A DNA stretch of 61,194 bases, counting the filler. It is 7 parts of 7 records of this genome, joined end to end, with 100 filler letters (N's around TTAATTAATTAA, not from the genome) between each part and the next. Parts side by side here need not be neighbours in the genome. Positions count along the whole stretch, not along the records: positions 1 to 13,218 come from SRR7504441_657; positions 13,319 to 26,452 come from SRR7504441_672; positions 26,553 to 36,346 come from SRR7504441_677; 4 more parts are not named here. One strand, written 5' to 3'. The position numbers were made by a program, and so were the translations under genes. Below are positions 6,039 through 35,689 of the stretch, piece by piece (the first letter of the stretch is position 1; each line of letters starts with the position of its first letter). Below the pieces are notes generated by a model, which was not told where the DNA came from, did not search any database, and saw only the letters and a list, made by a program, of their open reading frames with translations.

Positions 6039-7963
6039 TCAAATCTCGTTGCGCATGATCTTCTCTCGCATCGTCTTCATCAGATTATTCATAAAATAAA
6101 GGTTATGTATCGACGCCAGCGAGAGAAACCTGACCACCCTCTCACTCGGCACGGCCATCGGCGCACAATGGCTCGTTCTGCTTGAACAAATGGTGCAGGT
6201 AAGACCGGCTGTACGGGATTGTCTCAAGGTTTGGATCTATTGGCCCAAAGTCATCGACATGTTTCCTTTGCGTGATCCTCAGCTGGCCTTCGCTGGTGAG
6301 CAGCGTGCCGTGCCTAGCCCTGAGATCAGCCCCCAGCTGGGGCACCCATCACCGGGCGATCCGGGTCGGATTGCAAGCATCGAACGTGTCGCACCCAAAC
6401 GGCACGAGAGCCTCGATCGACCGCTCGTCAGCGATCCCCAGGATGTGGTTCGGCTTGTTATCCGGCACTTGCGGCATCAGCCAGCCGAGCATTTCGACCA
6501 TCTCCTCGCGGTCCTGCCGAGACTCAGCCCAGCGGCTGGCTCGAGAGCACCTTGCCCAAGCTGCCGCCGATTGCGAACCCGTCGAATGGGAGAGAGCTGA
6601 GATAATCCAAACTCAACTTGCGCAGCTCCTTGTCTGCCGCACGTGCTGGCCGGGCAGGCCATCGGCGAGCTACCTGTGCCGCCGTGCACTACAGCGTACA
6701 TAGCTTGCTCGCGCCTATCCTTGAGATGCTCTCTGAGCGACCTCGCCATCCAGCGATGCGACAAGAATACCGAGGCTCTCAGGCGCTCCGGCGTGACGTG
6801 ATACGGCGGGAGCTCATCCAGCGGAATTATGATATCGGCGCCGATCTTCTTTTGGGCCTGGACTGCCGCTGAGCGCCGGGTGGCACGGCGGCGTGCCTGA
6901 ACAGTAGACTCTGGCGTAAGGTCTATCTTCTTGCCATCGTAGTAAGACCGGAACTGGGTTCCCTGCTCGGACACCTTGAGCAGCGTGCCCTGACCCGCCC
7001 GCTCCATCGGCGGTCAGCGAGCTGGCTGCACCCCGCCGTTGTCGTCGGTGTTCCTCTTTTTCTTTTGCTTGAGCTCCGGCCCGTCCTCCTGGGTTATATG
7101 ATTGAGCGAGAACACCTAGCCCAGGCTGGCCCCTGGTCGAGCCATGCACGAGCCTGAAATCCGCCCGAATCGGTTATAATCGGCCCGGTGCGGTTCATGA
7201 ACTTGTGCAGGCCTCCGGCCTTCTCGATCACATCCACGCCAGGGTGCACCTGCAGCGCGTCACGCCGGCCTGCCACGCCGGCACCAGCAGGTGGTACGTG
7301 TTGGAAAACTGCAGCTGCACCCCTGTCTGGTCGGCTTGCTGCCCGTCAACAGCCTTGAGTGCCCCTGCACCTCGCATAACCGCCGACCGCTCTACAGGAC
7401 GCCACCGTTGGTCGCAACAGGCACAAATGCCGGGGTGTGGATCACGCCGTGCGGGGTGTGGATCTTGCCCACACGCGCGTTCGAGCCTGCCCGCCGGGCT
7501 GCCGCTGCTGAGCCTGCCGGGGGCACCTGGTTTGGTCGATTTGTGAACAATCTCCCACCGAAAGAAATCCGTCGGGCTCCAAGCCGGGTACTGCCGCGGC
7601 CTCAACGGCAGCCCTGGGTGAGCGCCGCACCGTCTCGGGCCCCGGAGGCGGTTCAAGTGGGTCCTGCTTTGGCCGGAACCGCGGCTTCTTGTTCCGGTGG
7701 TACTCCTCGCCTGTGGCCTGCCAACCGCTCGTGCGTCCCCCCCGCGGAGGGCGCCTGCTGGTACTCTTTACGCATCTCGGTGCACTGCGCCTGCGCCCCA
7801 GGCTCGCCTCCCCCGCCTGGCGGCCCGGCGCCTGGAGCGCCTCGATATCGGCCGGGACAGCATCCGGCGCGGCCTTTTTCTGGCGGAGCTCTGTCTCAGC
7901 CTCCCGGATCTTGCGCTTGAGCCCGGCCGACGGGTCGGACTCGCCAGCGGCAGCGGCGGACAT
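6039..7963 (-). CDS. tgt: tRNA-guanine transglycosylase (bacterial-like TGT) with N-terminal WHEP-like domain; 13 introns
   Basis: Removing 13 introns of 35-42 nt gives [78 protein letters not shown] and SIHNL, all TGT motifs in the right order. Confidence 0.93.
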
Positions 7964-8140
7964 GCGGCGGGCTGGAACCAGACGCGCCCTCAGGCAGTGG
8001 ACCCAGGCAGCTGGGCGGAGAAGCAGCGTGGAAGTGGGTACAATGTGCTGTACGCCCGAGAGGAGAAGCTGAGCTTTGCCGTTGGCGGCTTGGCGCAGTG
8101 AGCCTGGTGGCCAAAGCAGTGCTGCAGGGGGGCCAGCGCG

Positions 8141-11103
8141 ATGGGCCGGTACAGCGACTCGGACGAGGACGGGGATGCGGGGGGGTCGGATGTGGGCGCC
8201 AACCTGCAGCTGCTCCGACGCAAGACGGGGCTGGTCAAAATCTTAGAGCTGATGCAAGCCGCCGACCAGGGCACCCTGCGGCTGTTCTTCAGTGACTGGA
8301 GTGGCAACGTCAAACAGCTCAAGTGGGCCCGGCTGGAGGAGGAGAGGCACGGCCTGACCGAGGAGATCGGCCGGGTCCGCGACAGCGCTGCCGGCACCAT
8401 GGCCAGGCGGGCGCTTGCAGCCTTCACGAGCGAGCTGACGGTGGGCCGCCGCTGCTGCCGGGGTGCCAGGCGGGGCAGGTGGCAGCGTTTGGGATGTGGA
8501 AGGATGCCACAGCCGGCGGCAAGGCGGGCCGGTCGCAAGATCAGGTGACAGAGCTGAACGAGATGCTGTTCACGCTCAAAAATAAAGTGGCGGAGCAACT
8601 GCAGGGCCGGATCCAGCAGCACTCGGATGCGGAGCGGCTGCGGGTGGGCTGGAGCCAGTGGCTGGCACTCTGGCACCACGCAGCTCGTGAGCGGGCCGAT
8701 GCGGAGAGTGAGGCTATGGCAGAGGCGCTGGCCAGAGCCAGGCTTGTCGCTTCAGGTGCTGGCAGCGGCTGTCGACAGGGTGTCGACTGTGCTGCTGCAG
8801 GCTCACTAGCGCGCTCCGTTATGAACCGGATGCTGAGTGGGTTCACCTCCGAGTGTTTCTCGCACTGGAAGGTGGGCTGCCCGCTGTGAGTAGCCACTGA
8901 CGCGTGCACTACCAACAGACCGTTGCATTTGATACTAAGTTGGAAAGAGCTGCGGAACAGCAACGGAACGCTGAAGGTCGCGCGCGCGGACTAATTCGCA
9001 GGCCAAACTGTGGGCGGCAGGTAAGCTCGCCCTGTTCAAAATCTCGGCTGCGGATGCCTTTTTCAGCAAGATGAGCGAACGGTGGGTGCTGGGTTGACAT
9101 GCTGCTGACTTCTAGGGGCAGTGCCACAACAGCACTCGTAATAGAGGCCATGCAGCACTGGAAGGACATTTTGATTGCTAAAAGACAGCACGGACTGGAG
9201 GAGGAGCGCGACGAGCTCGCCCAGGAGCTCTTTATGATGCGACACACTGGTGACCTGGTCTATGGCTTTTGATTGAGATCTCCGGTGACAGCTGCTGACT
9301 CACTGTTCCGGAAATCTGTCGAACAGTGGATGCAGGGATCGGTCGCTGGGGCATTCCGCGCTTGGGTAAAGTTGATGGGGAAATCGCAAGTCAGCCGACT
9401 CAAGAAAAGAGTTTATCAGCTAGAGCAGATGATTCGTAACGCTGCGACAAAGGGTCTGGCGATTAGCCAGCCTGCCAGCCCCAGCAAGCTGATCAAAACC
9501 ACCAGACGAGTGCGCAAAGTGCGTAAGCGTTCCATGAGCCGTAAGGGACTGGGTCGATCCAAGCTGCCAATGGGACTGGGTTCAGACTCGCAGTGCAGTT
9601 TGCTCCTGAAAATGAACATGGAAACCATTGGCCCTGGGACGCCCAAGCGGACTACTTTTGAGCAACAGTTCGTTTCGGATGTGGCCGGCTCGCTGGATGT
9701 TCACGAGGCACGGATTTCACTTAAAGCAGTTGAATCTCGAGGTGTGCCGTTTGCTGAACAAGGCCTGAGCTTGACTGTAGGTAATCGAGTGAGGGTAAAA
9801 TTCTCGATCTTGGCGGGTGGCAGTGGGACAGATGCTGGGACACTGGCACAGCAGCTAGTACTTCAGTCAAAAGACTCTGGGAGTGATCTCTACTCTGGCG
9901 AGGTGTGCATGATTATCTCCTCCTCTGAGGCTGTGTAGGTTACATGGAGGAATGATAGGGCATACAATGAGGTGATGGAACTGCCTATTGATAGCGATGT
10001 ACCAGAAACGCCGGAGAGGCATCAGGGTGATAGTTCCCAGGTCCCGTGCAGCTGATATTTCGCCAGATGAGGAGGAGGAGGAGTCAGAGTACGAATCGTA
10101 TTACGAGGAAGAAGAGTATGAGGTCAATCACCACGACAAGGATGATGCAGAAACGCCGGTAGCCACGGTAGAAGACTTGTTGCAGTACATGGTTGAAGAA
10201 ATCGAACGCTCAAGGAGGACAGCGCCACCAGAAGTCAAAGCAATGTTGGTGTCCAAGTTCTCAGATGCGCTGTACTACAAGCATCACATGCAGCTGGAGT
10301 TTGCTGGATTGATGGAGGTGAGATAAGCACACATGCATCAGTGAGTTGAGTTCCTAGGTCTTCAACCGTTGGAAAGATGTGCTGTATTCAAGCAGGATTG
10401 CAGTCTGCGAGGAGCACATCCAAGAGTTACTCGAACTGAATCAGCAGCTCAAGCACCGTGCTGCTGAAGCAATGAAGCAGAAGGCAATCTCTAATCCACT
10501 TGTCTGTGGTTATGACTTTTGGCAGGTCCGGCGGAAGTGGGCCCTTGGGACCTCATCAGAGTGCTTTCATCATTGGCATAATGTGGCAGAGTCACGTCGT
10601 ACAAACATCCTAGAGGTACAGCGTGCTAAGCAGAGTAACTCATCTAAATTATGATGGCCAGACTGCACGGCAAGACGCGATGCACAAGGTCGTGGCTCTG
10701 CAACACCTTGCTGCTGAGGCAGTGGCAAAGAAGGTGCAGAGCTTCCCAAGGCTCGTGGCTCTTTTGCTTACAATGCGGCAGGCTATGACGTATTGGCTAT
10801 ACCGAGGCTACATGGAAGGCTTTAGTCTATGGTTACATTGTACTTTGACCAGCCAAGTGCAAAAGTTGAAGCTCGAGCTGGGGCAGTCGCAAGAGGAGCG
10901 TGCAATGTTAGAGCAAAAGGTGCCTAGTCATAATAGAGACGATAGGATGACTGTCGTATAGGTGGAGAGGCTCAAGAGCAAGTTAGAAAAGGCGGCAACA
11001 GAGAAGAAAGCGCTGCTGGAGGAGGTCTTGAGATAGATTGGGTCTGTTGTGCATGTGACGTGGCTGTATACAGGTGAATCACCATGTCCAGTTGCTTCTA
11101 TGA
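8141..11103 (+). CDS. Large coiled-coil protein with repeated F..W motifs (Sfi1-like periodicity), multi-intron
   Basis: Consecutive exons in changing frames separated by ~40-nt introns; recurring ECFSHWK, AFRAW, ECFHHW, EGFSLW; acidic tract; inferred stop TGA 11101-11103. Confidence 0.55.
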
Positions 11104-11440
11104 CGAGCATTGAGGAGAAGAATCATTCAATGCCTATATGTATATACTGACCTGTTCGTGAGAACTCGATATGATCTACATGTACACCTCTGCTCGGCCA
11201 CAGAAAGTTCATAGCGACTCCTATAGGCCTCAAGAATTTAGTTGTTACCGGATTGACAACATCCACGCATACGTAATCACGTTATAATTGATGCACGACG
11301 AACTAGTGCAAGACGACAAGCTGGCACATACACGTAACGAATTAAACATGTAGTGCAAGAGTGCATGAAGAATGGGTTTTAATACTTGCAATCATGACTA
11401 TTGTAATAATAATGTGAGCTTCCGATTTTTGAGCACTCCC

Positions 11441-12954
11441 TTACAAGCGATTCCTCGCACGGGCGCATGTTTCTTCCAAAAGCTTGAAGAATTGTTCCTC
11501 AGAGCCCTCGCGCTCGCCCCTCTCAGTTTTGATGTCCTCCTCCAGGGTGCCGGTGGACTCCTCGACCATACGGAGAATGTACTCCTCACTCTTTTGCCGG
11601 TCCTTTTGCTCCTGTTGCACATACTTGAAGAACTCGGCCATCTCATCTTTGATCTTCCCTTGGATGCCTTCCCTATGCCTCACTCGCTTGGTCCGATCCG
11701 AGTGCACTTCGGCGCTCAGATCTCTTATCTGCTCCATCCGCTGGGCGTGATACTGCTCGAGTCTAGTCTTCTCTGCCGTCTCCTCCTCCACCAGGACCCT
11801 CAACTCCCCGCACCGGCCCGCGATCTGCGCCGTGAACTCCTCCAAATGGCCTTGCGCCTCCTCCTCGCACGCAAGCATGTTGTGCAGCGAAACCTGCCCG
11901 AACGAATCAGCCACTCGCCCGACTTGCAGCCCTCACCGTCTTGTCTCTTATCCTTTCCAGCAACTGCTCTCCTCTGTCGTACCGCAGCATGCCTTCCTGC
12001 TCCACGTTGCCCGAGAGCGTGGGCAGCAGGGATGGGTCGAGCGAGCTGCGTGTGGCAGCATCCATCCGAGCCTGTCGCAGATTGAGCAGCGCTGCAGGCT
12101 AGGCTGCCACCTGCTGCTCCTCAATCAACTCCGCCTGGAAGATCCCGAGCTTATCGTCGATCTGTCGGGCCAGCTGCTTGTCCAAGTCCCGCCGGGCTTG
12201 CCTGCTCCCCGCTCACCCCGCGCACACACGCGCCGCACCTGTGTACGTTCAGGTCTAGCAGAACTGAAGTCTCCATTGACTGAACCTCACGGTCGTAACT
12301 GTCGTCCGGTGAGCGACCGACCGGCGGGCAGGCGCACCGCTCTTTAATCACGTCGAGCGAGCACTTTTCGATCCCGCAGTCGTCTTGCGCGCGGACCGTG
12401 AGCATTCGCAGCAACTTGTACTTCTCTGCTTCGACGCTCTGCGCTTTGGTGAATCGATTGTCGAGCGACTTGAGTCTGGTGCTCAGCTCCTCCTGCCGCG
12501 AGTCGGACGGCCCGATCTGCCCCCCGTCGGCTCAGCCCGCCCTCCCGCGCAGGCCGGGCACCTGGTTTTCGATCAGCTCTACCTTCCCGCCGGTGTGGGT
12601 CTGCACTCGCACACCCGGCTCGCGACTGGGGCCATCCTTGCCGGCCGGCGGGTCGCGGATCTTCTCGTATAGCGCCTCGACCCGCGAGGCCACCGAGTCA
12701 GTCTGGGGAACGATCGCCACTGTGGCCACCGGCCCCGGGGCCGCCTCGCCCTGCAGCACCGGTGAGCGGTACTGGTCAGGGCCAGGGGGCGGCACCGTGC
12801 CGGACTTAACTTCAGCGAGTGCCGCGGCCGCGGAGAAGCCGGCGGCTTGGTCGGCCGCTACTGGCCCGGCGGTCAGAAGGCCGGGGGGGGCGGCGAGGGC
12901 ACCACGGGCTTCTAGCCCGGCAAGCCTCTCGTCCATGGCGGTGGTATCCACCAT
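11441..12954 (-). CDS. SF-assemblin/beta-giardin-like coiled-coil cytoskeletal protein
   Basis: Pro-rich head followed by segmented coiled coil ending EREGSEEQFFKLLEETCAR, resembling the striated-fibre assemblin family; several short introns. Confidence 0.6.
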
Positions 12955-13218
12955 GCTCGGACTGCCCCGGCCGGTAAGCAGCCGGCAGCGAGCTGGGCAG
13001 GTAGGCCGGCTGACGCCAGGCCGGGGGGGGCGCGACGCACCTCACGAGCCTGTCCAGCCCCGCTTGCGGAATGGATTTGCAACGGGTTCGAGAAAACTGA
13101 ATCCGTTGCTCGAGCTGGCCTGTCGGAGTTGAAAATAACGAGGGTGTGGCTCGAGCTCAGACAAGGCGGCCATGCATGCCGACCTGGAGCGGATCGCCCG
13201 GGAGAAGATCCCGCCGAT

Positions 13219-13318
13219 NNNNNNNNNNNNNNNNNNNNNNNNNNNNNNNNNNNNNNNNNNNNTTAATTAATTAANNNNNNNNNNNNNNNNNNNNNNNNNN
13301 NNNNNNNNNNNNNNNNNN
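13219..13318. other. Artificial contig linker N44-TTAATTAATTAA-N44 (also 26453-26552, 36347-36446, 46936-47035, 51670-51769, 56612-56711)
   Basis: Six identical 100-nt N-flanked all-frame-stop spacers; genes are truncated at them. Confidence 0.98.
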
Positions 13319-13555
13319 CGCCCAAGGAAAAAGGAGAACAAATGCGCGCACGGCCGGCGCAGGAGCCGGTGCAAGGAGTGCGGGGGCGAGCCGCCGTCGA
13401 GGAAGAGGTCTGGCGGCGCGGCGGCGGGCCCGCTGGTCCGGAAGCGGACCACTGCGCCCAAGCAGACTGTGTATGTGCTCAAAGGGTGGGCGGTCGAGCG
13501 GCCGGACCACCAGAAATGCAAGTGGCAACGGGTGGCAGAAGTGCCCGCAGGGTGA
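13319..13555 (+). CDS. 3' fragment of a protein with a CxHGRxRxxCKECGG putative zinc-binding motif
   Basis: Frame from 13319 reads RPRKKENKCAHGRRRSRCKECGGEPPSRKR... to TGA 13553-13555; absent from the ORF track because it has no start codon. Confidence 0.6.
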   Translation, partial: RPRKKENKCAHGRRRSRCKECGGEPPSRKRSGGAAAGPLVRKRTTAPKQTVYVLKGWAVERPDHQKCKWQRVAEVPAG

Positions 13556-13608
13556 GCAGCTTACCCTGCGGGCAGACGGCGAGCAACTCCCAGTTGGTCC
13601 CAGTACCA

Positions 13609-13654
13609 ATTGATTAGAATCTACTCGATTCTAATCAATCAGTTGATTAGAATC
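13609..13654. repeat. 13-bp perfect inverted repeat ATTGATTAGAATC/GATTCTAATCAAT plus a third arm copy
   Basis: Arms at 13609-13621 and 13627-13639 with a 5-nt loop; TTGATTAGAATC recurs at 13643-13654. Confidence 0.8.
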
Positions 13655-14064
13655 TGATCAATCCCAAGCAGTTGGAGTACTTAGCTAACATTAGACAACT
13701 GATGGAATTGTACTTGTACCGGTATGATTTTTAGTTACATATAGTTACATACTAAATAGGTACCTTTCCAATCCTGAGGCAATCTTGAGGTCAATCAAAT
13801 GAATGTACCGGAATGTACGATGTAATTTTTAGTCCTGACTTAAGCTTACATGTATAAAAGACTTGACAACCGATAGTTGACAACCGTAGTTGTTATGATT
13901 GGTTTCACTCATACAACCGTATTAATTTAAAAAGCAAATGCTCGATGACGCTCGGCGCTTTTAGGCAATTAGTTCCATGCAGCTAGTTACAACGCGCAAG
14001 TGCACAGCAAGTCAAGTCCAACTGAATCAACTAGATGTTAGCATTGATTCCGTTGCGGCAGTCT

Positions 14065-17000
14065 TTAGCGAGTGACACTGTTGGGTGTGAGCCGGAGGAA
14101 GAACACCCACACGGTGAACACTCCGTGCATGTAAGCCTGCACCAGCACATCCACCGCAAAATTCGAGTGCTCGGAGGTGGCTTGGTGAACGTTCATATCC
14201 ATCACCCGTTCGATCACAGACTCGTTGTCCGTGTACGGCATATTGATCGGAAATCCGTGCACCTGCGCCCCATCATATCAAGCAATCGGCAACCCGTTAC
14301 CTCATGTGTGCGGAGGTACTTCTCGAGGTCGGCCGAGCCTTCCTTCTTGTCGCCCAGCCCCTCGGCGTCGCCGCAGCAGAGCTTGACAAACTCGGACGAG
14401 GTGCACCAGACCTCGTGGTCGCCCTCAAACGCCACCCAGTCCTCTATGAACGGGATCGACGAGACCAGTCGCAGCAGGTGCGCCTCGGTCTCCTGCCCGG
14501 TGCTGCTCTCCCACAGCGGCGGGGCCAGCGGCACAACAAATGCCGGCAGAAAGATCGGCTTGCCAGCCATGTCTGGGGCAGCCGCGATCACCATGTTGGG
14601 GTTGGAGCAGTGTGTGGCGCTCCGGGCGGTCCGGAGCCACTTCTGGGCATAGTAGCTGAACTCTGGCGAGCTGTGCGCCGGGATAGAGCCTTCTTGCCGG
14701 ATCCTCTCCGGTGGGAGCAAGACAGGGTTGAGTGTAAGGTAGAGCTCCAGCATCATCGGCCGGTCGGGCTGCGGCTCGTCTTTGTCAGAGTCGTTGTCGC
14801 CCGGAAGGTGGATGAGCTTGGTCGGGTCCTTCCTGTAAGCCACGTTGAACACCGGAGTCTCCACGCGCATCACGCCCTCCAATTTGGTGTTCATGTACAC
14901 TTGCGAGAACGGAATGTTGACTCCGCCCAGCCAGGCCACGTGCGGTTGCTCGGGCGAGCTCCCAGGCAACTCGTCAAAGACGTTGATCCGGATCATGTCA
15001 GTCACTTGCTCGATAGAGCCGGGCGTGAATTTGCCGTCCGGTGTGTCCACTGGCAAGAACATCGTCTCCTTCCAGACCGGATCGCTCCCACAAATCGGTC
15101 GGGTGGACCGCTCGCCGCCCTGGAACTTGACCTGCACAGAGCTCATCACGCTCCGCGCCTCCCGCTCTTGGTGCTCGGCCGCCAGCTCGGCCGCCAGTCC
15201 CGGCCGGCGGCGGCGAGTGGGCGAGCTGGGTTGGTGGCTTTCAGGCTGAGCGATTCTGCGGACAGGGAAGTCGAAGCCTTGAATGCAGAGCACCATCAGC
15301 TCGCACTGGGCGGCCGAAGTGGCCTCCGGCAGCTGGGTCTGCCGCTTGGGCTTGAGTTTGCGCTCCGGCACAAACGACTCAAAGAACTCTGTCCACGAGA
15401 AACTGCCCTTCTGGTCGAGAGGCGGCTCGCGCACCACGTCATCGTGCGATACGACCCTGCGCTGGTTGGCCCGCTGCAGCTTGGCCTGCGCCTTCACTTG
15501 GTCCAGGTACCTCCCGATCTGCGCCCTCGGCCCACTCAGCTGCTGCTTGCTCAGTCTGTCCGGCTCCACAGCCTCCAGAGGGATCTGTCTGTCCAAAAGA
15601 GGCACTGGCTTCTCGCGGATAGGCCCGAGCGAGTGCCACCGGCGGGAGAGCAGCTGGTGCCGCCGCCGGTCGGCTGGATCCCCGAGCACGTGTAGCTTAG
15701 CCTTGAAATCGTCCACACGGAATAGAGTGCCCATCTCGCTCAGTTCCTCCACCACCGCGCCTTCTGCCAGCGCCGCCCGGTTGACAGGGTTGTTAGGGTC
15801 GAGCTCGGTGAGCATGTCGCCATGCAGGTCGATACCGTGCAGCCCGGTCCCCAGCCGCGGCGCCCTCATTCGCTCCTGCTTGGGCAACGGGGGCACCTCC
15901 GGGATGCACACCTGGTCCTCGTCGTCGTCCTCGTCGCCCACCGCCTCCGCCACGCCCCATTGCACCGCCAACTCCAGCTGCGCCGCGCAAAAGTGCTCAC
16001 CAGACGGCACCACCACTGGCTTGTTCGCCTCGGCCCCCGCAGCCACCTTCTCCCTCGCCTTGGCTGCCCTCTCCTCTTCCCAGAGAGGCACAAACCCCAA
16101 CTGGCCCTGCAGCCGGTAGCGCTGCTCCGGGTCGGCAATCAGACTCTCGCCGTGCTGACCGGGGATCGCCACGTTGCAGCTGCCGACCAGCTCATCGACA
16201 AACGTGTGCTCTTGCCAGATCTCCACGATCAGGTCGCGCGGCCACGACAAGATCTTTAGGTCCATCGGCAGCCCGAATTCGACAACGAATCTGGCGCTCA
16301 TCTTGCACGGCTCAGTCCGGTGGACCAGCTGTCCGTTGCAGTGCAGCTTAGCGTAATAGCAGATGGCCTCGCACTCGCCCTGGTGCTCCAGATGCCCCCG
16401 GGCGCTCTCAGGCTCACACGAGTCGTGCACCAACGGCATCCGCCTGCATACGTCGCCCAGCGTCTCGTCGGATAGCGGCACGTTGCCCATCACAATCAGC
16501 TCCGGCACCAGCTCGCCATCATACGCGTGGGTGCCGATCTGGATGCTGGCTGGCTGGCACCGGGACTGCTGGTCGCGCACCATGGCCTTAAGCTTATCCG
16601 GGTTAAGCCCGCGCTCCTGCTTGGCCTGTAGGGTGTTCATCTGATCGATCAAGGCGTCAAGCTCCTCTTGGATATCGTTCTCTGCAGACAGCCAGTTGGC
16701 AGGGCCTCCTAGCCCGATCTCCTCCTCAGGCTCAAGCCCCTGCGCCACACGTGATTCAGCCGCCTTGGAGCGTAGCCGGCGCTTCTTCTCGGCCTCGTCC
16801 AGCTGGGCCTGTGTTAACTGATCATTTCCTTATTAGGGAGGCGAGGTTAACCTGCTTGGCCTCGACCAGCCGCCGGAGCTTGGCCATCTTGAGCTCGAGC
16901 TCCACCCAGTGCAGCCGGTCTAGCTCGTCCAGCTGCTGCTGCTCGTCCTCGCACACACTCCACACCTGTCGGCGGATTCTATCAGATCCTGTTCCAACCG

Positions 17001-19848: not shown

Positions 19849-20245
19849 GGGCGCGCCAATCGGCAACGGACCGAGTAGAGCCTTTCAATAAGAGGGAGCG
19901 CGCTATCGATCTATTTTAGTCATACTCGTACAAGTATATCGCTACATGTACTCGTATTGTACTCGTAGTCCACTCGCCACGTTACAGCAGCCGCAATGCT
20001 GTGGCTGAGTGCGTCGCCGCTGTGCAGCTGAGCACTTGGGCAGCTTGATGGCTCGACTGGTCGGCGGCTCGGTGGCATGATCGGTTCGCGGCTCGGTCGG
20101 CGGCTCGGGTACGGCTCGGGCGGCTCGGTGCACATGGCACGGCGGCACACTGGATCGATCCGGCTGCCTCCGCGACTGCAGCAGGCTTGGTTGACGGTGA
20201 GGCCTTGGTTAGGCAAGTTGTGCCCGTGTGCCCATGGAGCGCGAA

Positions 20246-22522
20246 ATGTCTGAGTTTGTGACGCGTCTGACGCCTGCAACGGCGTGCAACGCTATAACGA
20301 TGGCGTTCCCGCGGGTGGCCGGCGAGGTCTTCACGGTGGGCCGGGCGGAGCGGGGCGGGTGCGAGGCGGGGCAGGAGTACCTCGGGCTGTTGGCCGTTGA
20401 TGACCAGCTGCGGACCGGTCGGCTCGAGCTCGGGAGCACGGCGCCCCCCCCGGGCCGCTGTGGGATGATCAGGCCCAGGACTGCCTGGTGGTGATCGACA
20501 TGCAGAACGACTTCCTGTCGGCCCAGCCCAACAACCCGATCACCGCACCGCCGTTCGCGGTGCCGTTGGACCAACGGAATGTCCGTTGAGCCCGGGGCAG
20601 GCGACCGAGAGCGAGCACATCGCTGAGCCGATCTGCGAGATGATGCGAGCGGTGCACGCGGCCGGCGGGGCGGTGGTGTGCACCAAGGACTACCACCCCT
20701 GGGACCATTGCTCCTTCCTCGGGCACGCCAGCCCCGAGTGGCCGGCAGCCCCCGCCCGCCGGCCCCGCGAGCCTCTCACAGGTCCAACCCAACTACCCGC
20801 CGCACTGTGTCCAGGGCAGCGCCGGGGCCGACTTGTACGAGCCGGTGCGGGCCACACTCTGCCAGCTGATGCGAGAAGACAGTCTCCGTGCTAAGGCTTT
20901 GGGCGCCCTGGAGCAGCGGGCCAGCGAGGGCAGGTGGCCTGGAAGGGCTTCCATGAGGAAATCGACTCGTTCGGTGGGGCAATGTACCCGCCTGAGGCCG
21001 AGCACTGCCGGTTCGGTCACGCCTATGGCAAAGCGGCCGGCTGTCAGCTGTCGGTGCTATCAATGTCGTGTGGGGGGTGAGGATGGCCAGGCGTGGACCG
21101 GAAGCTTTGTAATGAAGAGCTCGATGCACAGCGAGTGGCACGGGCGGCTGGAGCCCGAGCACGTGGACGCCCCCCCGGACGTTATGGCTGTGCTGAGCAA
21201 GCAAGCGCTGCATGAGTACGTGGCCGAGCGAGGCAGCAAGAGAGTGCTGGTGTGCGGGCTGGTGCTGGACTGCTGCGTGGTGGACACCTGCCTCAACATG
21301 CAGGCGGCGGCCGCCCCGGGGGTGGAGGTGCTCATGGTGCTGGACGGCTCGCGACCGGCACACGTGTTTGGGTGGCTGCTGATTGTTGTTTATGGCTCAC
21401 TGGTTTTTTAGGTTTGGGCAGCACGGGTCTGGGTTCCTGTTCGATCCCCTGCCGGTGCCGGCTCCGTCGGCCAGCGTGTGAAGGCTCGCAGGTGGCTGGC
21501 TGGATCAAGCAGTCAAAGCTCGGGCTGGTCCTCTGCGCCCAGCTGCTCCAGGCAACAACAACAACAACAATAATAATAACAACGGCCGGTGCAGGAGGAG
21601 ACGATGGCCGCGCTCGAGCACCGCGGGGTGCCAGTGGTCGGCCCCAAGACGATCACCCCTGGGAGCCCGTCCGGGTTCTTCAGCCGCAAGGCTCGCTTCC
21701 CTGCAGTGCTCGGACTCAAATGCGTCCGCGCCGGGTGCTTGAATTAATCAGCATCAACGGCTCACCCGGGGCAGCCTGGTCTCGACGGCCATCAAGCTGG
21801 CCAACCCGCCCACCGAGCAGGCCGTGGGTCAGTACTCTATGGACTCGAGCCATCAGTGCTACGGGCTGGCGCACTTTGGGCTGGTCTCAGAGTCGTTGCT
21901 ATCCCCTCTCTCACCGGTCACGCTCGACCAAGCCAGCGAGCGCAGGATGTGCGACTTGCCTGCTGGGAGCGTGAGCTTCTGCTACGCGTATCCTGTGCCT
22001 GGGAGCCAGGCTGTTGTGGAGAAGGTGCGGCAGGAGGCGCAAGTGTCCCCGCAGGTGAACGTTTAGTCCTCGGAAGGCAGTTAGGCCGGGCAGATCTGGA
22101 ATGAGCCCAACATCGCCTTCGGGTTCTTTGGAGGATTTGTTTACTTTGACGGGACAGGCGCCGTGCTCGGGTGCACTGCCAGGTAACGCCCATCTTATAG
22201 CACTTAACAGTACCCTAACAAGGTAGCACTTAGTAATAGTACAGTGGCACAGACCGACCGGGTCCGCAGGACTCCAATCCACTCAGCAGCCGAAGTGCTC
22301 GCGCTGGCCTCGCCGGAGTGCGAAGACTACCAAGACACCCCGCTGGTGGAGAGGCTGGCAGCAGAGGGCCGGCTGCAGCCAGCGGGGCAGCCGGAGGAGC
22401 GGGCTGCGGGGGCAGAGTCTGTGGGCTGGGTGCTGCCCGGTGAAGGCTCGTACGAGCAGAACGACAAGGGCGGGTTTGTGTACACGTTTGCGGACGGCCA
22501 GCCGAGATGGTATTTCCTATGA
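20246..22522 (+). CDS. Nicotinamidase/isochorismatase-family hydrolase with long unknown C-terminal domain, multi-intron
   Basis: After removing 37-43 nt introns: LVVIDMQNDF, KDYHP..HCSF, YPPHCVQG..GA, KGFHEEIDSFG, VCGLVLDCCVVDT, giving the D-K-C triad and metal-binding His residues. Confidence 0.8.
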
Positions 22523-22715
22523 GACTGCCTGCGAGGATTGAGCACCCGTGAGACACTGAGGAGACCTACGGGTAGTACTAGTTAGAACACTGATATTGTG
22601 GAGGTATTTAATCAAAACTATTACTTGTAAGGACTAAGCTATCCAATGACCCAACGCCTCTTGAAAGCACCCAAGACCGCGCCTCATATATTGGTCATTT
22701 TGTGCTTAAAACTAA

Positions 22716-24687
22716 CTATTGCCCCTCGGCCGCAGGCTGCTGCTCCTTGGCTGCCGGCAGCTGCCCTCCAGCTCAGCCCCAGCCCATCAGCGCTGGCACC
22801 TCGTGATCCGGCAGCCCGCACTCCGCTACCACCTCCAGCCCCTGCCCCCGCTCCCGCCCGCCTACCCTATCCCCAGGCACCGTGAGCCGCTCGGTGAGCT
22901 CTTGCCCGTGCTCCGGCGTCACCCCCAGCTTGGCCTCCAGTGCGGCCACCCTCTTCTCCGCGGAGCCTCGCTCCCGATGGACTTTGCCTTCCAGTTGGAT
23001 CTCAAGGTCATTTATCCTCTTGTAGGTCTCCAAATGGCCCAAGTCCTTCTGCAGATCAGCCGCCTGTCCCAAGATCGCCAGGGCACAGCTGCTTGGCAAG
23101 ACCAGCTGGTAGTCGGCAGCGTTGACTGCCTGCACGATCTCGGACTGCAGATCGCAAATCTTTCGCTCCTCTGGCGTCAGCGCCTGCCCGCCTTCAGCTT
23201 TGGCTGAGCTTTGCATAGTGCATGACCTCTCTCTTGAGCTTCTCCTCGTCCATCTTCTTCTTCTGAGCCCCTGTCCGGCCCTCCTCCATGCAGTCCTCTA
23301 CAAACCTGCCGGCCAGTCACTCTGGCCCAGCCAGGGGGACCCACCTTCGGAACATGGCCCTCATCCGTTTCCAGAGCATCATGGCAGCGTAGTTGATCAC
23401 GTCAGCCCACGGACCCATGTCCTGAGAGAACGAACCGGTGAAGGCCGGGCTGCTGTCGTTCAGCTCGGTTGTGGTCATCTCGCGCAGCTGAGTCCCGGTC
23501 AGGGCATAATATTAAATAATATTTAATTGGTCGCCTTCACTTGAAGCGAGAGTCGCTTCTTGAGCTGGTCCCCCTGCCGGCCGGCTGAGCCGGGCCCAGC
23601 GGCGAGCGGCCTGTTTGACGAACACCCGAAGGTCGCAGTTGAGTCCGAGCTCCATCGCCACCTGAGACCGTGCTGAGACTCTGAGATCCAGCCCTCGCCA
23701 CCCTCTCGCGCCCGCGCTTTTTAATATACTTGACTATCCCGGAGAGCCCGGTGACGTTGATCACCGAGCAATGCACCTGCCCCGGATCGCCCGCTGGCCT
23801 GCTGGTCGGCTGCCTGCACGTTATCCGGGTTTGTGATTTTGCCGTCTGCAATCATCGCTGGAGTGAGCCTCACCATCCCCTCCTCGTCGTTCGGTACCAC
23901 CCTAGCCGGGGCTGGCCGGGCGGCCGGGCGGGCGGACCATTTCATCTTGTCCAGCTCGAGCAGCACGTAGTACATTACGAAGTAGTCCAGATTGGCCTCC
24001 TGCTCCTGCCGCCCAACTCTCACACCACAGCACTGAGCCTCTCAAAGCCTGCGAGAAAGTGTTTTCAAGTTTATGCCCGTCCGCCTGCCCCGACTGAGCC
24101 AGCCGGCCCCCGCCCGCCCGCCCGCCTTGGCTTTGAGCGCCGCCACTTCCTCCGCCGACAGCGGCTTGTGCTCCCCCGTGAGCACCTGCCAGCCCTCGCC
24201 CGCCACCCGGCCAGCTCCACCTCGGTGACGTTGGTGACGTCGTGCTCGATGTTGTTCTCGTCCTGCCCACGCTCCCGCCCGGCCCGCCCGGGCTCGCACC
24301 ACCCACTTGCCGTGACTCCCCAGCGACGGTGCGGCGGCCCTCTTATACACCTGTACCCGAGCTCGCCCGGCCGGAGGGTGGGAGGGTGCCCGGCCAGACT
24401 GAGTTCGGATCTCCCACTCGATCTCGCGCTGCAGCTCCTCCTTGTGCCCCGGGTTGTGCGCTGGCCCTCGATCAGCCGGGCCCGGCCGGCCAGTGCCGTG
24501 CTGGGCGAAGTGCTTACGGATCTTGTCCTCGGGCCACTCGCGGGCGTGGTCTGGGCACTGGCCGGGCTGGGGGGTGGCGGGCGGGGCGCACCTTGAGCCC
24601 GATGGACGACTCGGCCTCCAGCTGGCCGATCAGCTTGTCCATCTTGGACCGGCGGCGACGCTCGATCGGCGACGGGATCGCTGCCAT
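22716..24687 (-). CDS. Hypothetical intron-rich protein with C-terminal coiled coil
   Basis: MAAIPSPIERRRRSKMDKL start; many short exons separated by ~40-nt introns; inferred stop TAG at 22716-22718; no family recognised. Confidence 0.5.
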
Positions 24688-24915
24688 GTGCGCAATCCGT
24701 TGGGTCTCAGGTTAACTCTGATTTACCGCCTTTGGTAGCCCTTTGAACAAGCTTGATCAACTTGATGAAACAGTCGATCACTGTACAGCGCCAACTGCAT
24801 AAGCTATATAACCAAGAGATAGCACCTAGGTACCGGTACAAAGGTCACCGGACAACAATGTCATGTACAGCTTGTTATCACGTACGAGTAAATATTCATT
24901 GACACCGTGCTAGTT

Positions 24916-25828
24916 TCAATTGGAATAGGGACAAAAGTAGTAGGTCTGGCCGCCCGGTCCGCTCGAGTGCGGTACCGGCGGCCCCGGCTCGCAGCACCGG
25001 CCGCACCGGGCTGGTTGGCCCTTCCTATCATCACACTCGGCCCCTGGGTTGATGCAACCCCTCGGCTGCAGGCTCCGGAGCCGGAGGAGCGCCGACGCGA
25101 TGCTGTTGGTAGGCCCGGCCACCGGCACCTTGGGCGTGTTGTACCGGGCGAGCACAAGATTCACTCTGTCGTCGTCGAGTGTCGTGTTCTGGGCCGCTGC
25201 CATCGCCGCGAATGAATGAACCGCGTCCCCAATCACGTCCTCTGTCGGCCAAGAGCTGTTTGTGACTATGAACGGCAGCAGCAGGAAGGCGCTCTTGCGG
25301 GCAGCCAGCACGGTGCCGATGAACTGACCCTCATCCCGCTTGCCGAAGTCGTTCGGGTTGAACTCCATCGCCACCCCGTGGAGCTGCGGATGGTCCAGCA
25401 CCCGCTCCACACCGGCCCGCCACTCGCTCCCCGGCCAGAACGCCCGGGTCAGGATCACCACCGCCCGGCGCATCGCACTCGGCGGCGGCCTGGCTGATCT
25501 CGGTTCGGTTGAGCATCGTCCTTGGCACTCCGCCCGTCTCGTGGTACTGGAACGTGGCGGTCAGACGCCCCGCCTCTCGCCGGACCGCCTTGCAGTCGCG
25601 CACCGCCCCCGGGTTGTCCTCCGAGAGGAGGCTACCGTTGGTGGGGATCGCCCGGGCCCACTGGCTCGGCAGCACCCCGGGCGAGTTGTCCTGAATCAGC
25701 CAAGTGCCGTCGGCGATGAGACCGAGATCGAGCTCGGCCGAGTCGAACGTGTTGAGGTCGAGCAGGATCCGGAAGCCCAGCAGCCCCGGCGCCAGCGCCA
25801 GCACACCCAGCACCCAACGCCCCAACAT
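24916..25828 (-). CDS. Secreted protein with Cys-rich C-terminal mini-domain; frameshift near 25465 (assembly error or pseudogene)
   Basis: Signal peptide MLGRWVLGVLALAPGLLG. The coding-like frame switches from ORF 25331-25828 to ORF 24916-25473 at gat gcg ccg g|gcg gtg gtg atc, and no suitable intron was found there. Confidence 0.55.
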
Positions 25829-26430
25829 GGCAGTCGGACGAGATCACAACGGAACCGAACCCCATGTCAATGACTTCGACTCTTATGTCATACTCGTACA
25901 GTCCGTCTGATTTGGCACCTCATGAAATTGAACAATACCAGTAGTGCTCACCTCGTAGCACCTCATAGCAATACTGACGCTAAGCCGGACGAAGGGATCA
26001 TAAAAGTCGAGCCGAGAGCTGATTCGAGTTGCACGAGTTTATTCAAATCTCAGGTTCACCGATAAGCATATTAAACTGAATCACTGAATAATCAGCTACA
26101 GTAGCTCGGTGCTTTCCTCGCCCGGCACTCGGTCGCCGGCTTGTACTCGAGCAACCACTCGGCCACTCAATCATTGCGCGAGTGACCGAGCGGCAGCCCA
26201 GACACAAGCCAGCCAACAACACCCAGAGCCTGTTGGCTCTACATGTTCTTGAACAAGCCACTCTGAGCCACCCAAGGGTGGATCTTCACGAAGCTCTGGG
26301 TAACCTGCCCAAACTGAGCTGAGCCAACCGGCACCAGCCGCCTGCTCGTCGATCCCTTCGACGAATCCGTTGCCGTCGCTCATGGTCGCGTTCACAATCC
26401 CACAGATCACCTCCCTACCCCCCGCTCCCC

Positions 26431-26452
26431 AGATCGGAAGAGCGTCGTGTAG
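26431..26452 (+). other. Illumina TruSeq adapter remnant AGATCGGAAGAGCGTCGTGTAG
   Basis: Exact adapter sequence at a contig end. Confidence 0.97.
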
Positions 26453-26552
26453 NNNNNNNNNNNNNNNNNNNNNNNNNNNNNNNNNNNNNNNNNNNNTTAA
26501 TTAATTAANNNNNNNNNNNNNNNNNNNNNNNNNNNNNNNNNNNNNNNNNNNN

Positions 26553-28396
26553 CTCCCTCCCCTGCAAGGGCTGACCACCAAACCCTCTGGCAGGCTTGCC
26601 TGGTACGCCAGCCGCTCCCTCAAGTCTTCTAGCTGGTGGCTGGCGAGCTCTGCCTGCACCGACGCCGCGCTCTCGTGCATCGTTTCCAGCCCGGCGAGCC
26701 GCTCCTCGAGCACTGCCAGCCCGTGCTGCGCCGACCCCAGCGCGCTTGTGCTCCAGTCGCGCTCGCCTGTGACCGCCTGCCCCGGGTTGCCGGCCAAGCG
26801 GGCAGCCGCGTTACTTGAAGAGCTCTGTCGAGCTGCTGGTTAGCGCGGGAGAGCTGGGCGGCCTCGGCCTGCGCTTCGGTGAGATCGGCCAAGTGCTCTT
26901 CCAGTCGGGTGTGTAGCTCATCCTGCGCGGCTTGCATCTGCACTCTGTGTCCAAGGCTCAACCGAGCCCAGCCCAGCCAAGCACCGGCATCGGTCGACCC
27001 AACAATTGGCCCGCCAGCCGGCCACCCGCCCTCTCTGGTCGGCCCATACCCGCCTGAGCACTAATCGGGCCAGGAGCGCCCGCCCGACTGCGATAGGCTC
27101 AAGGCGCGCATAACCAGGCCCGCACCCTGCTTGTCAGCCTGCAGCCGGCTGGTGTGGCTATCCAGCTGCTGCCCCGCCAGCCATTCTGATAGCATCCCGG
27201 CCTGCCAGCCGCGCACGGCCGCCCCGGCTCGCATCCCGTCCCTCCAGTACTGGCATAGTCGGGCCACCAGCACAAACCCGAGCCCAACCCTGTCACCTGC
27301 CCACCCGTCACGCCCGCCAGGCCAGCCACGCACAGCCGGCCTGCTCCCGCTGCTGCTCCAGCTCCAGCTCCAGCCGCTCCGCCGCCGCCCGGTGCTCCCC
27401 AGCCGCACGCTCAGCCGCGGCACCCGCCGCTTGTTCCGCCTCGGCCAGCCGCCACTCCGCCTCCTGCAATTCGGCCTCGTGACGCTCGGCCGCCCAGGCC
27501 GCCGCCTCGGCCGCTGCCGCCTCAACCTGCTCCAACTGCCGCTCGAGCTGACCCAGCGCTGCCCGGTGCGCGCGGGCCTCAGAGTCTGCGTTGCTTGCCG
27601 CCTGAGCAGCCAACTCCTCGAGCGCCACTCTGTGCTGCTCAGCCACCCGGCGAGTGTGGGCTCCGAGCCGGTTCCGGGCCCAGCGCCAGACAGCCCGCTG
27701 GACGGTCATGAACCAGAGCTGGCAGCTCCGGGTGAGAGATATGGCGTAGAACACGCCCGGCATCAGCAGCGCCTTGGGCGGTCGGCTCTGGTCCGACAGC
27801 TGGTTGGCAGCCGCGTTCATAACGGCCGCGTGGATCGCCGCCCGGGTCTCCGGGTGCGTCTTATCTGCCCTACCGGACGACTTGGGGCTGGGCGCAACCT
27901 GTCGCACTGGCTCTGGGGTGCTCACCGGCCGGGCCGGCGGCTGAGTGCTCACTGGCCGGGCCGGCGGCTGGGACTTTGCCAGCTCAGGCAGCTGACCGCG
28001 CTTGTGCCGCTCGCGCATCAGCCGTTTGCGCGCCTCGGCCGCCTTCTTGGCCGCGGACGACTCGGCAGACGACTTTGGCTCGCTGCGCGGGGTCTGGCTG
28101 CGGGGCGTCTCTACCCTTCCGAGCTGTATGGCCACGCTGCGGTCCGGGGTGCGGGCCGGCGGCGGGAGCTTGGCGTTGATCTTGCTCACCATCTGCCGGA
28201 ATTCGTGGGGGCCCATCACCGAGCGGAGCGAGCCCATCCAACGGCTGAAGCCCGGCTTGTCCACTGGGTCTTCGCTCGGGGGCGGCAGGGCCAGCCGGCC
28301 GAGCTGGAAGGCGGCCGACAGCTCCGACCGGTCCAGGCTGCCGCTCCGGTCGGTGTCCAGCCTCTCGAAAAGGCTCCCCAGCTCGCCAGGCTCCAT
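26553..28396 (-). CDS. EF-hand plus coiled-coil protein (3' truncated at linker)
   Basis: MEPGELGSLFERLDTDRSGSLDRSEL is a canonical EF-hand loop; P/S-rich linker, then E/A/Q-rich coiled-coil exons. Confidence 0.7.
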
Positions 28397-28469
28397 GCTC
28401 CGGCACGCCTCCAGAGGAGCTGCAGGGGAGCCTCGACGAGCAACGGACAAACACACCGGCGCGAGGATC

Positions 28470-30511
28470 ATGAGCAGCGAGGAGGCTGCGGCCGCAGAGC
28501 CGGAGGCGCCCGAGTCGGAGGAAGCGGCGGTGGAGCTCCCGACGTTCGAGCTGCCGATCCTGAGCACAATCAAGGCGGCCCAGCGGGCCAACGGGCTGCT
28601 CCACTCCGAGTACGAGCGCTACAGGTACCCGCCGCCGCCCCGCCCCGCCAACCGGCCGACAGGCACTACTGCACGCGCAAGGTGCAGCGGGTGCGCCGGT
28701 CGATCCGGTTCACGCACGGCCGCGGCCGCTTCCAGAAGAAGGAGATCACCCCCGAGGTGGTCAAGGACGAAAAGTGCGCCCCCGGGGGGTTCGACCGGCG
28801 AGCGGGCGGGCAGGTTCCTCTTGCTGCCTCTGTTCTACGCTGAGAGGGCCTGGGCCTACGCCCAGCAGTGCAAGCAGCAGATCTCCAACAGGATCGAGCG
28901 CGGACAGCCCGCCCAGCGCCGGCACTCGCTCACTCGGCTGCAGAAGGTTGGGCCTCCTCACTCGGTTGGCGAGCGAGCCACCGGCAGGCCTGGAAGTGGT
29001 CCGAGCAGCTCAAGGCGCTGTGCGAACAACGGGGCACCGGCACCACCGCCCTCGAGGCGCCCCGCCGATTGGGCGGCCGCCGAGCTCCTTGGCAGGCGGC
29101 TGCGTATGCCTCCTGGATGCAAGGAAACCTGCTGCTCGAGTGGTCCGCTCCCGGCCCGGCCAGCGGCCGAGCCAGGCGGGGCAGCGACAAGTGGCGCGAG
29201 GCCCAGGAGGCCTTTGTGCGGGCCCAGGGCATCTACGCTGAGCTGGCCAAGGTGAGCGGCGCGCGCGACAAGGAATTGTTTGACCGCCAGCTGGACGAGA
29301 TCGCGCCGGTCGTCCGGTTCTGTGAGCACGAGATCAAACTGCGGGCCGGGTCGGACACCACGGACGACGCGGCCGAGATCTTGGCCATGCAGAAGCTCGA
29401 GGGCATCGATGAGAACCTGCGGAAGCGGCTGGACTCTGTTGCGATGGCAGCCAACCTCAAGCAGGCCGAGGGCATCGACGCAGTCGAATTCGACGGGTCG
29501 GCCATCCCGATATCGAGCGAGCAGATCCGCGTGGCGCTGCTGGCGGTGCAGGAGGCTGCTCAGGAGTTGGGCGAGCTCGAGGAGTACGAGCTGATCATGG
29601 AAGGGTACGACAAGCTGCTCGGCGCGTACAATGAGATGTCCCACAAGATTCAGGCGGCCGGCCGGGGCTGGCCCGACTGAGCCGGCGCTGCAGGCCGAGA
29701 TCCGGGCGCTGGCCCCCAAGCAAGCCAAGGCCGAGGCTCAGATTGCTGACCTCCGCCAACTTGATAAGTACGTGAGTGCCAAGAAGCTGGAGCGGATCAT
29801 CGAGCGGAACGAGGCGATGGCGGCCAAGCTTAAGCAGGGGCTGGCCACCCGGGAGACCCGGCCGGACGATCTTGTGAGAGTCTACCACATGCTCGCTCAG
29901 AACGCCGAGGAGCTGGCTGGGCTGCACGACAAGGGCGCAAAGCTGCTAGAGGCGCGCGGCACAGAGTTCAGGGCCCACCGATGCGCCCACCTGGCCGGTA
30001 CCCGCCCCCGCGCCCTGCCCGGCCGAGCAGTGCGACAGGCAAGTGCCGAGTGGACCAGAAATTCCCTGAGGCGGTCGCGATGTATGACCGAGCGGATGGG
30101 CTGAGCCGGATGGCTATGGCGATGCTCCGAGAGTGCGAGGCCGACACCACCGAGCCGTGCCGCTCGCTCGAGGAGCTCCAGCACTGGATCAGAGGCGTCA
30201 AGTGCGCGGTGCAAGCCGAGGCGTTCCTGCAAGAGCACGGCGACCAGCCGGAGCGGAGCGCCGAGCAGGAGGCGCTCAAAGATGAGCCGCTGATGGACCG
30301 GCTGGACAAGTGGGTCACATTCGCGCCCGGGGACACGATCAAGATCCACGACTTCCCGCCCAAAGTGCGCCCGATCCCGTGCAAGCCTGTGATGTACGAC
30401 TTGGCGCTCAACTATATCAAGTTCCCGGACCTCAGCCACAGGCTGCCGGCCGAGAAGAGCCAGGGCATGCTCGGACGGGCCAAGAACCTGCTCGGTGGGC
30501 TCTGGGGATGA
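28470..30511 (+). CDS. SRP68: Signal recognition particle subunit SRP68, 7 introns
   Basis: Spliced: AQRANGLLHSEYERYRHYCTRKVQRVRR, AERAWAYA, TALEAAAYA, IAPVVRFC, FPPKVRPIPCKPVMYDLALNYIKFP, GGLWG. Introns at 28625-62, 28774-813, 28947-87, 29057-95 (GC), 29143-84, 29654-93 (GC), 29998-30038. Confidence 0.93.
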
Positions 30512-30947
30512 CCTCCGCCGCCGACCCCGGTGGTTTCGGACATTGAACGAGTCTCCCACTAGTGCGCTTGCACTGCTTGCAGTACCAACATTAATATTTC
30601 TGCGAGCTCCGATTGCAATTGTGTCCGATTGCATTCATGTTAGCATTTAGTTGGCATTCAAGCTTGTGTAAACTGTTCTATATGTTGTAATCGCGTATAG
30701 TCATTCAAACAGTATCACCTTTGAATCCGAAGCGAGCGGGACTAAGGATTAGAGCTGGACTAAGAGCATGTAAGAGCCGTCCGGACGGAGGCAAGGTCGA
30801 CATGAACGACAGTCAACGCCTGCGCAGGCTGTCTCAAGGAAATCAATAAAAAAATAAATCCCCAGGACACTTGAACAGACGGCTTGCACGCGCCATCGCC
30901 GGTGCCAGCGCGGCTTGCAGTGGCGGTTGATTGGCGGGGCGCAGGCC

Positions 30948-35631: not shown

Positions 35632-35689
35632 TCCACCACGCGCGCTGCCCAATCAAGATTCCGAGTCCTGCACGAATTGCCGTTGTGAG

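Follow-up and report, generated by a model that had tools for sequence, protein, structure and literature searches.

The genes for queuine tRNA-ribosyltransferase (TGT) and SRP68 in a 61,194-base stretch of assembled DNA (the window) from an uncultured, G+C-rich marine protist were found to be interrupted by 13 and 7 introns, respectively, all 35–42 nucleotides (nt) long, and six of these 20 introns begin with GC instead of GT. The lengths, ends, motifs and internal spacings of the introns were observed directly, and removal from the mRNA was observed for five introns, two of them in other genes of the window. GC-AG introns account for ~1% of introns in most studied eukaryotes, and here roughly one donor in three or four is GC. 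We regard it as likely that these are ordinary major (U2-type) spliceosomal introns with GY-AG ends (Y, pyrimidine; R, purine), packed to nearly the minimal spacing and subject to G+C pressure.

The introns of TGT were located by spliced alignment to four homologous proteins (P0002, P0004, P0005 and P0003) with our own protein-to-genome aligner, which left the place and the ends of an intron free and accepted any length of at least 18 nt. This rule-free alignment placed 12 introns of 35–42 nt between positions 7757 and 6129 with each of the three full-length homologues, and recovered the last 8 of those 12 with the partial homologue. When GY..AG ends were required, 13 introns were obtained (Table 1), four of them with GC donors (7831-7791, 7754-7718, 7153-7116 and 6896-6858), and the spliced product was 82% identical to P0122. 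The same procedure applied to SRP68, with P0001, P0251 and other homologues, gave seven introns, two of them with GC donors (29057-29095 and 29654-29693); here the start at 28470 comes from an ab initio gene model and the alignment runs from 28473 on. The 13 and 7 introns of 35–42 nt proposed earlier from the sequence alone (the original prediction) were therefore recovered by homologue alignment, with their exact ends set by the GY..AG requirement, and so was the count of six GC donors among the 20.

Models restricted to GT donors lost 115–155 units of alignment score, in TGT 151 (from 1889 to 1738) and 155 (from 1882 to 1727), where odd solutions were also forced. The support for each GC call was measured as the score lost when GC donors were forbidden within 45 nt; it was strong at 7153, 29057 and 29654, fair at 6896 and 7754, and weak at 7831. 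TGT intron 7 must be removed because its 38 nt shift the reading frame. TGT intron 9 corresponds to a 13-residue gap relative to mouse QTRT1 in an independent PDB comparison, and its GT alternative (6902-6858) deletes a conserved VQ at a cost of 25 units; the GC donors that had been called at introns 7 and 9 from restored protein motifs both held. SRP68 intron 4 was placed at its exact coordinates in alignments, free of splice-site rules, to 10 of the 13 homologues. SRP68 intron 6 had been noted for an in-frame stop and the lack of any GT: a TGA and a frame change are indeed present, and a GC donor was obtained with all eight homologues, so that the GC donor of this intron is certain. Its 3′ end varied with the homologue, three of the eight giving 29654-29693 (40 nt), one giving 29654-29681 (28 nt) and four, all in one 90%-identity cluster, giving 29667-29724 (58 nt). 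The 40-nt form fits the acceptor and branch signals described below, was chosen by a gene finder trained without SRP68, and is the most likely of the three options.

Direct evidence of removal came from RNA contigs, which were aligned to the N-free part of the window at 26553-36346 only, and hence to SRP68 but not to TGT. One X4 metatranscriptome contig spans three joints in SRP68, at 28947-28987, 29057-29095 and 29143-29184, and two further joints lie in an EF-hand gene and in a cytochrome-b5/fatty-acid desaturase gene (Table 1). The 39-nt skip at SRP68 intron 4 can be cut in six equivalent ways; an AG end occurs only in the GC..AG form 29057-29095, and none of the six begins with GT, which upheld the GC call against nearby GT donors. 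The RNA thus documents the removal of one GC-AG and four GT-AG introns, and the other 17 of 22 rest on homology; this evidence is thin but direct. Joints that skipped 83, 101, 109, 737 and 2953 nt had short sides (21–27 nt) and non-canonical ends, and were set aside as chimeras or products of other organisms.

It could be argued that misplaced boundaries, in-frame coding insertions or assembly errors had been taken for GC introns whose genuine donors are GT. In favor of this, three of the 20 introns (two with GC donors) keep the reading frame, lack stops and could be read through; the dinucleotide GC occurs at twice the frequency of GT in the DNA of the window (0.104 vs 0.052); our first finder over-called GC; and the assembly is a draft with adapter and poly-G at two contig ends. 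Such an artefact is nevertheless excluded for the RNA-tested and frame-shifting introns, since the RNA contig drops exactly 39 nt at 29057-29095 with no GT..AG cut possible and the introns at 7153-7116 and 29654-29693 change the frame with no workable GT option; for the rest it is unlikely. The losses of the GT-only models also count against it. As a general account of the GC donors we consider it highly improbable.

The splice signals were analyzed in a verified set of 22 introns, comprising the 20 introns of TGT and SRP68 and the two introns shown by RNA joints in the other genes. Their mean length was 39.4 nt (standard deviation 1.9, range 35–42), as narrow as had been claimed, and their G+C content was 77%. 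Five of the 20 TGT and SRP68 introns have lengths divisible by 3, with no evident depletion of this class. All 22 introns have GY..AG ends, and the RNA joints are compatible with such cuts only. The preceding exon ends in (C/A)AG, with G at −1 in 20/22. At the donor, +1 is always G, +2 is split between T (16) and C (6), +3 is mostly a purine (19/22; 15 G and 4 A), +4 is C in 16/22, and +5 and +6 are only C or G. The original prediction of little consensus at +3 to +6 therefore failed at +3 and +4 and stood at +5 and +6. The acceptor follows GGCAG/G (the slash marks the intron end), with C at −3 in 20/22 and G as the first exon base in 18/22. A polypyrimidine tract is absent, as noted before, the pyrimidine share at −15 to −4 being 0.25–0.58; 18 of the 22 introns contain no further AG within −10 to −2.

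Adenine makes up 8% of the interior bases of these introns, yet it is concentrated 11–14 nt before the 3′ end, where all 22 verified introns carry an A against 29% expected. The same was true of 54 of 59 introns predicted elsewhere in the window (33% expected), a result that is not circular because the acceptor matrix used for prediction spanned only −10 to +2. The conserved A lies 24–31 nt from the 5′ end in a YGAGC-like context (Y at −2 in 19/22, G at −1 in 15/22, G at +1 in 16/22 and C at +2 in 14/22); CGAGC was present in 9 introns where 1.3 would be expected, and GCTGA, TGAGC and CTGAG (a CTGAS motif) are enriched among the predicted introns. This A is probably the branch point, held at a fixed distance within a G+C-shifted version of a CURAY-like motif. 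The two tight spacings on either side of the A add up to the narrow total length, which is therefore not a ruler in its own right.

In the arrangement that we propose, an exon ending in (C)AG would be followed by the donor G-Y-R-C, the likely branch A in its YGAGC-like motif and GGCAG/G, with no polypyrimidine tract, and in most cases the 3′ end would be the first usable AG after the A. Removal would be carried out by the major spliceosome. Minor (U12-type) introns have the donor RTATCCTT and the branch sequence TCCTTAAC. They were characterized by ATATCC and CCTTAAC in the published survey that we used for comparison (PMC3033335); no donor in our set contains TATCC, and the donor consensus, G-Y-R-C followed by C or G, is not of the U12 type.

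The six GC donors among 20 differ strongly from a 1% rate (p = 3e-8). The introns contain 300 C and 104 T, and the 16 T and 6 C at +2 therefore correspond to odds of ~7.7 for T. Thus T at +2 is still preferred ~8-fold, far below the ratio of ~99:1 usual elsewhere. The earlier suggestion that GC donors are tied to the end of the exon was borne out: exon AG preceded all six (five CAG and one GAG) and 5 of the 14 GT donors (Fisher p = 0.012), and among predicted introns it preceded 9/15 GC and 15/44 GT donors, a weaker difference in the same direction (p = 0.07). The most likely cause of the abundant GC donors would be G+C-biased mutation or gene conversion acting at +2, where T is only moderately preferred and may change to C; such a C would be tolerated only after exon AG at −2/−1, which would keep the pairing with U1 and U5.

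To extend the analysis beyond the two genes, we used an ab initio finder combining a 3-periodic Markov model of coding sequence with matrices for the donor and the acceptor. When one gene served for training and the other as the test, the finder recovered 13/13 and 7/7 introns exactly with no false call (penalties 8–10, with a length prior), and 11/11 and 6/7 without the length prior. Two earlier finders were poor and were rejected: a codon log-odds model skipped exons, and a Markov version that lacked signal matrices called GC too often. Without the length prior, 87 further introns were predicted, 59 of them 33–47 nt long with a mode at 37–40 nt and 15/59 GC donors; the 28 outside that range were scattered and are probably errors. 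A control that accepted any donor dinucleotide, with +1 and +2 removed from the donor matrix, gave 33 GT, 14 GC and at most 3 of each other dinucleotide in the 33–47-nt class (n = 69), although the DNA of the window contains GG and CC at about the frequency of GC, which again argues against GC donors being a modelling artefact.

Intron density was very uneven, TGT having 13 introns in 1.43 kb of coding sequence and SRP68 seven, with none in the 1.78-kb cystathionine beta-synthase (CBS) gene beside SRP68 (30948-32729) or in a 2.6-kb open CC2D2A exon (14217-16829). Related CBS loci in metagenome contigs gave no comparative intron data, three of the four being transcript-sized (~2 kb) and one a distant match of 34% identity. 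The uneven density would suit a non-classical origin, either as mobile introner copies or as structure-dependent introns, with variable, non-canonical borders and a stable fold that pairs their ends, of the kind found in euglenids, diplonemids and Amoebophrya, and the introns do fold slightly more stably than shuffled sequences (mean z = −0.40, t = −2.0, n = 22), a difference too weak to build on. The interior similarity of 81 introns was about that of shuffles (mean −2.87 vs −3.58, maximum 11 vs 10), which speaks against introners, and the uniform GY..AG ends with a conserved A stand against the variable borders described in the Amoebophrya study (PMC7789003). We consider this origin highly improbable, the least probable of those weighed here.

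The original prediction had also placed GC donors in genes named INPP4, nicotinamidase and chorein. A nicotinamidase (isochorismatase) gene lies at ~20234-21411; Pfam searches with 60 + 73 + 99 open reading frames (ORFs) or exons gave no INPP4 or chorein match. Two predicted genes without any Pfam match, at 36782-40140 (+), with 16 predicted introns of ~34–43 nt, and at 23523-24687 (−), with 11 predicted introns of the same ~34–43 nt (6/11 GC), could be those once called chorein or INPP4, and neither name was confirmed. A PP28-like gene at 46199-46934 (−; PF10252 on two exons) was given three introns of 46–47 nt, longer than the 35–42 nt seen above, by ab initio prediction only.

A different view of the same signals is that the splice sites are defined largely by a length ruler and exon-end pairing, as first proposed, with an altered U1 5′ end, U5 loop or U6 ACAGAGA and with U2AF lost or replaced. 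This overlooked the A at −11 to −14 in all 22 introns and the strong GGCAG/G acceptor; length is not the main definer because clear intronic signals exist. In its favor are the absent polypyrimidine tract, the C, or C and G, at +4 to +6 that depart from GTRAGT, the tight spacings on both sides of the A, the need of GC donors for exon AG, and a precedent in a subset of short human introns whose pyrimidine tract is truncated and that use SPF45 in place of U2AF (PMC8363638). Other lineages with short introns lack a polypyrimidine tract as well. The 5′ 11-mer of U1 was reported as canonical in both published GC-AG-rich species (PMC3033335). A search of the window for small nuclear RNAs gave no Rfam match, either at the gathering threshold or with E values as high as 0.1. 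We judge this view unlikely. The same low probability is assigned to its fuller form, a re-tuned spliceosome that would work ruler-like across the intron, independently of a polypyrimidine tract and U2AF65, with fixed spacings, a G-Y-R-C donor co-evolved with U1 and/or U6 and a C at +2 that is nearly neutral. If true, it would be the G+C-rich counterpart of the tiny-intron systems of ciliates, in genes as intron-dense as TGT.

Several points weigh against compacted but ordinary U2-type introns as the explanation. The RNA covers 5 of 22 introns and one of six GC donors, and each joint comes from a single contig of depth 2–5 in one run. TGT intron 1 is the weakest GC call, and the homologues disagree on where SRP68 intron 6 ends. 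The GC share of 6/20 does not differ significantly from 15%, the level of pelagophytes (p = 0.07), so that the figure of 30% is imprecise. The positions +4 to +6, being unlike GTRAGT, would allow only short pairing with a canonical U1 and leave room for re-tuned machinery. The window-wide numbers come from our own ab initio finder, a weaker kind of evidence, and GC is over-called when signal models are omitted. The role of the conserved A as branch point, the type of spliceosome and the mutation–selection account are what we infer from the observed features, and it is their common intron style that leads us to assume a single organism as the source of all seven contigs.

The window consists of seven contigs joined by six identical spacers and is not one molecule (Table 1). 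In each spacer the 12-mer TTAATTAATTAA, which carries stops in all six frames, has 44 N on either side, and genes flanking a spacer are not neighbours because the window strings separate contigs together. An Illumina adapter closes the contig ending at 26452 and poly-G closes that ending at 36346; the source is therefore a draft single-cell or binned assembly. The G+C content of the window is ~60% (C+G background 0.598). Lower values (46–50%) occur at 9900-11400, 44000-46000 and 50000-52000, between G+C-rich genes, where no Pfam match or confident model was obtained. A 1303-residue open frame at 47810-51718 (+) has PT-repeat matches (PF04886) near its end and a strong A-over-T and G-over-C skew. 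No tRNA was found in the window by ARAGORN.

Eukaryotic genes identified by Pfam comprise TGT, SRP68, CBS, DGAT2 and the cytochrome-b5 desaturase, together with CC2D2A, an SF-assemblin-like protein and the isochorismatase/nicotinamidase; CC2D2A and the SF-assemblin-like protein suggest a flagellate. The closest relatives of the TGT, SRP68 and CBS proteins are environmental transcripts (50–82% identity), and parts of the third contig are present in marine metatranscriptomes of four studies; the organism is therefore an uncultured marine protist, with some intron-dense genes. RNA contigs on 26553-36346 split into two identity groups, ≥99% and 90–95%, and the sampled waters therefore contain the organism of the window and close relatives. 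In a single-gene TGT tree (FastTree, 102 rows; rows <370 aa and P0003 left out), the sequence from the window fell in its own 5-row clade, which holds environmental transcripts and one EukProt transcriptome (the source of P0122) and nothing else. This clade lay within a well-supported 60-row clade that includes haptophytes and pelagophytes; the placement inside it was not resolved, and it was outside the pelagophyte and haptophyte clades proper. TGT belongs to the long, bacterial-like type and has a coiled region at its N terminus, where a WHEP-TRS domain (PF00458) is present in many relatives.

Table 1 Genes, introns and assembly features located in the window. Positions count along the whole window; score drops are in alignment units.
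Feature	Position	Strand	Ends and length	Evidence and remarks
TGT gene	6039..7963	−	14 exons, 13 introns	Pfam PF01702 on three ORF pieces
TGT intron 1	7791..7831	−	GC-AG, 41 nt	Score drop 5–13; also predicted by finder trained without TGT
TGT intron 2	7718..7754	−	GC-AG, 37 nt	Best GT alternative, 7764-7728, costs 19 units; 4/4 homologues
TGT intron 3	7591..7630	−	GT-AG, 40 nt	Spliced alignment
TGT intron 4	7487..7526	−	GT-AG, 40 nt	Spliced alignment
TGT intron 5	7365..7405	−	GT-AG, 41 nt	Spliced alignment
TGT intron 6	7250..7284	−	GT-AG, 35 nt	Spliced alignment
TGT intron 7	7116..7153	−	GC-AG, 38 nt	Score drop 71–83
TGT intron 8	6990..7031	−	GT-AG, 42 nt	In-frame stop inside; spliced alignment
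TGT intron 9	6858..6896	−	GC-AG, 39 nt	In frame, stop-free; score drop 25
TGT intron 10	6634..6673	−	GT-AG, 40 nt	Spliced alignment
TGT intron 11	6514..6550	−	GT-AG, 37 nt	Spliced alignment
TGT intron 12	6314..6352	−	GT-AG, 39 nt	In-frame stop inside; spliced alignment
TGT intron 13	6130..6166	−	GT-AG, 37 nt	Spliced alignment
SRP68 gene	~28470..30511	+	7 introns	Pfam PF16969 on four ORF pieces; aligned to homologues
SRP68 intron 1	28625..28662	+	GT-AG, 38 nt	Spliced alignment
SRP68 intron 2	28774..28813	+	GT-AG, 40 nt	Spliced alignment
SRP68 intron 3	28947..28987	+	GT-AG, 41 nt	Alignment and RNA joint (X4 contig)
SRP68 intron 4	29057..29095	+	GC-AG, 39 nt	In frame, stop-free; score drop 60–62; RNA joint (X4)
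SRP68 intron 5	29143..29184	+	GT-AG, 42 nt	Alignment and RNA joint (X4 contig)
SRP68 intron 6	29654..29693	+	GC-AG, 40 nt (3′ end most likely)	In-frame TGA, no internal GT, frame change; score drop 42–46
SRP68 intron 7	29998..30038	+	GT-AG, 41 nt	Alignment; RNA contigs stop and start at its two ends
Intron in EF-hand gene	27088..27125	−	GT-AG, 38 nt	RNA only; X4 contig joint, shorter side 25 nt
Intron in cytochrome-b5/fatty-acid desaturase gene	34961..35002	−	GT-AG, 42 nt	X3 contig joint, sides 125 + 130 nt; Pfam
Contigs	1-13218, 13319-26452, 26553-36346, 36447-46935, 47036-51669, 51770-56611, 56712-61194			
Spacers	13219-13318, 26453-26552, 36347-36446, 46936-47035, 51670-51769, 56612-56711			

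Two extremes meet in this uncultured marine lineage: the introns of its intron-dense genes are packed to ~39 nt, and GC makes up a large share of the donors. Such a genome offers a natural test of how much 5′ splice site, pyrimidine tract and spacing the spliceosome needs, and of whether G+C pressure alone accounts for abundant GC-AG introns. There is also a practical side, as gene finders and read mappers often set a minimum intron length of at least 40 nt and expect GT-AG ends, settings that would mis-annotate genomes like this one. The Amoebophrya study, for example, retained introns of 40–1000 bp only (PMC7789003). In the literature searched we found no description of these traits combined (intron-dense genes, introns of ~39 nt with 77% G+C, a fixed spacing of the branch, and GC at one donor in three or four), and supplements with per-species intron tables may bear on it.

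High GC-AG levels have been reported for Aureococcus anophagefferens (39.6%), Micromonas pusilla (22.2%) and a Chlorella (7.7%) by Iwata and Gotoh, who tied the abundance to a high G+C content and regarded its origin as an enigma (PMC3033335). A newer annotation gives 14–17% for pelagophytes, Aureococcus among them, with ~14% in Pelagomonas, 0.14–0.9 introns per gene and a mean intron length of 103–177 nt (bioRxiv 10.1101/2024.10.30.620910). The protist described here resembles these picoalgae in its high G+C, its marine picoplankton setting and a large minority of GC-AG among otherwise ordinary introns, and differs from them in that the picoalgae are intron-poor with longer introns, whereas TGT has 13 introns in 1.4 kb of coding sequence, all 35–42 nt. 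Narrow distributions of ultrashort introns have been reported for ciliates (~25 nt in Paramecium, and Stentor), nucleomorphs and some parasites. In these systems, whose introns are A+T-rich, recognition takes place across the intron, the branch point is near the 3′ end and there is no room for a pyrimidine tract. The introns described here share with them a very narrow length range near a lower limit, and are unlike them in having 77% G+C, a length of ~39 nt, a G-Y-R-C donor and many GC donors. Finally, they resemble the short human introns that depend on SPF45/RBM17, in which the pyrimidine tract is truncated or missing (PMC8363638), although the human route serves a minority in a genome of long introns. 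Tiny introns and abundant GC donors each have precedents, and what is new is their combination, together with the branch motif at a fixed distance.

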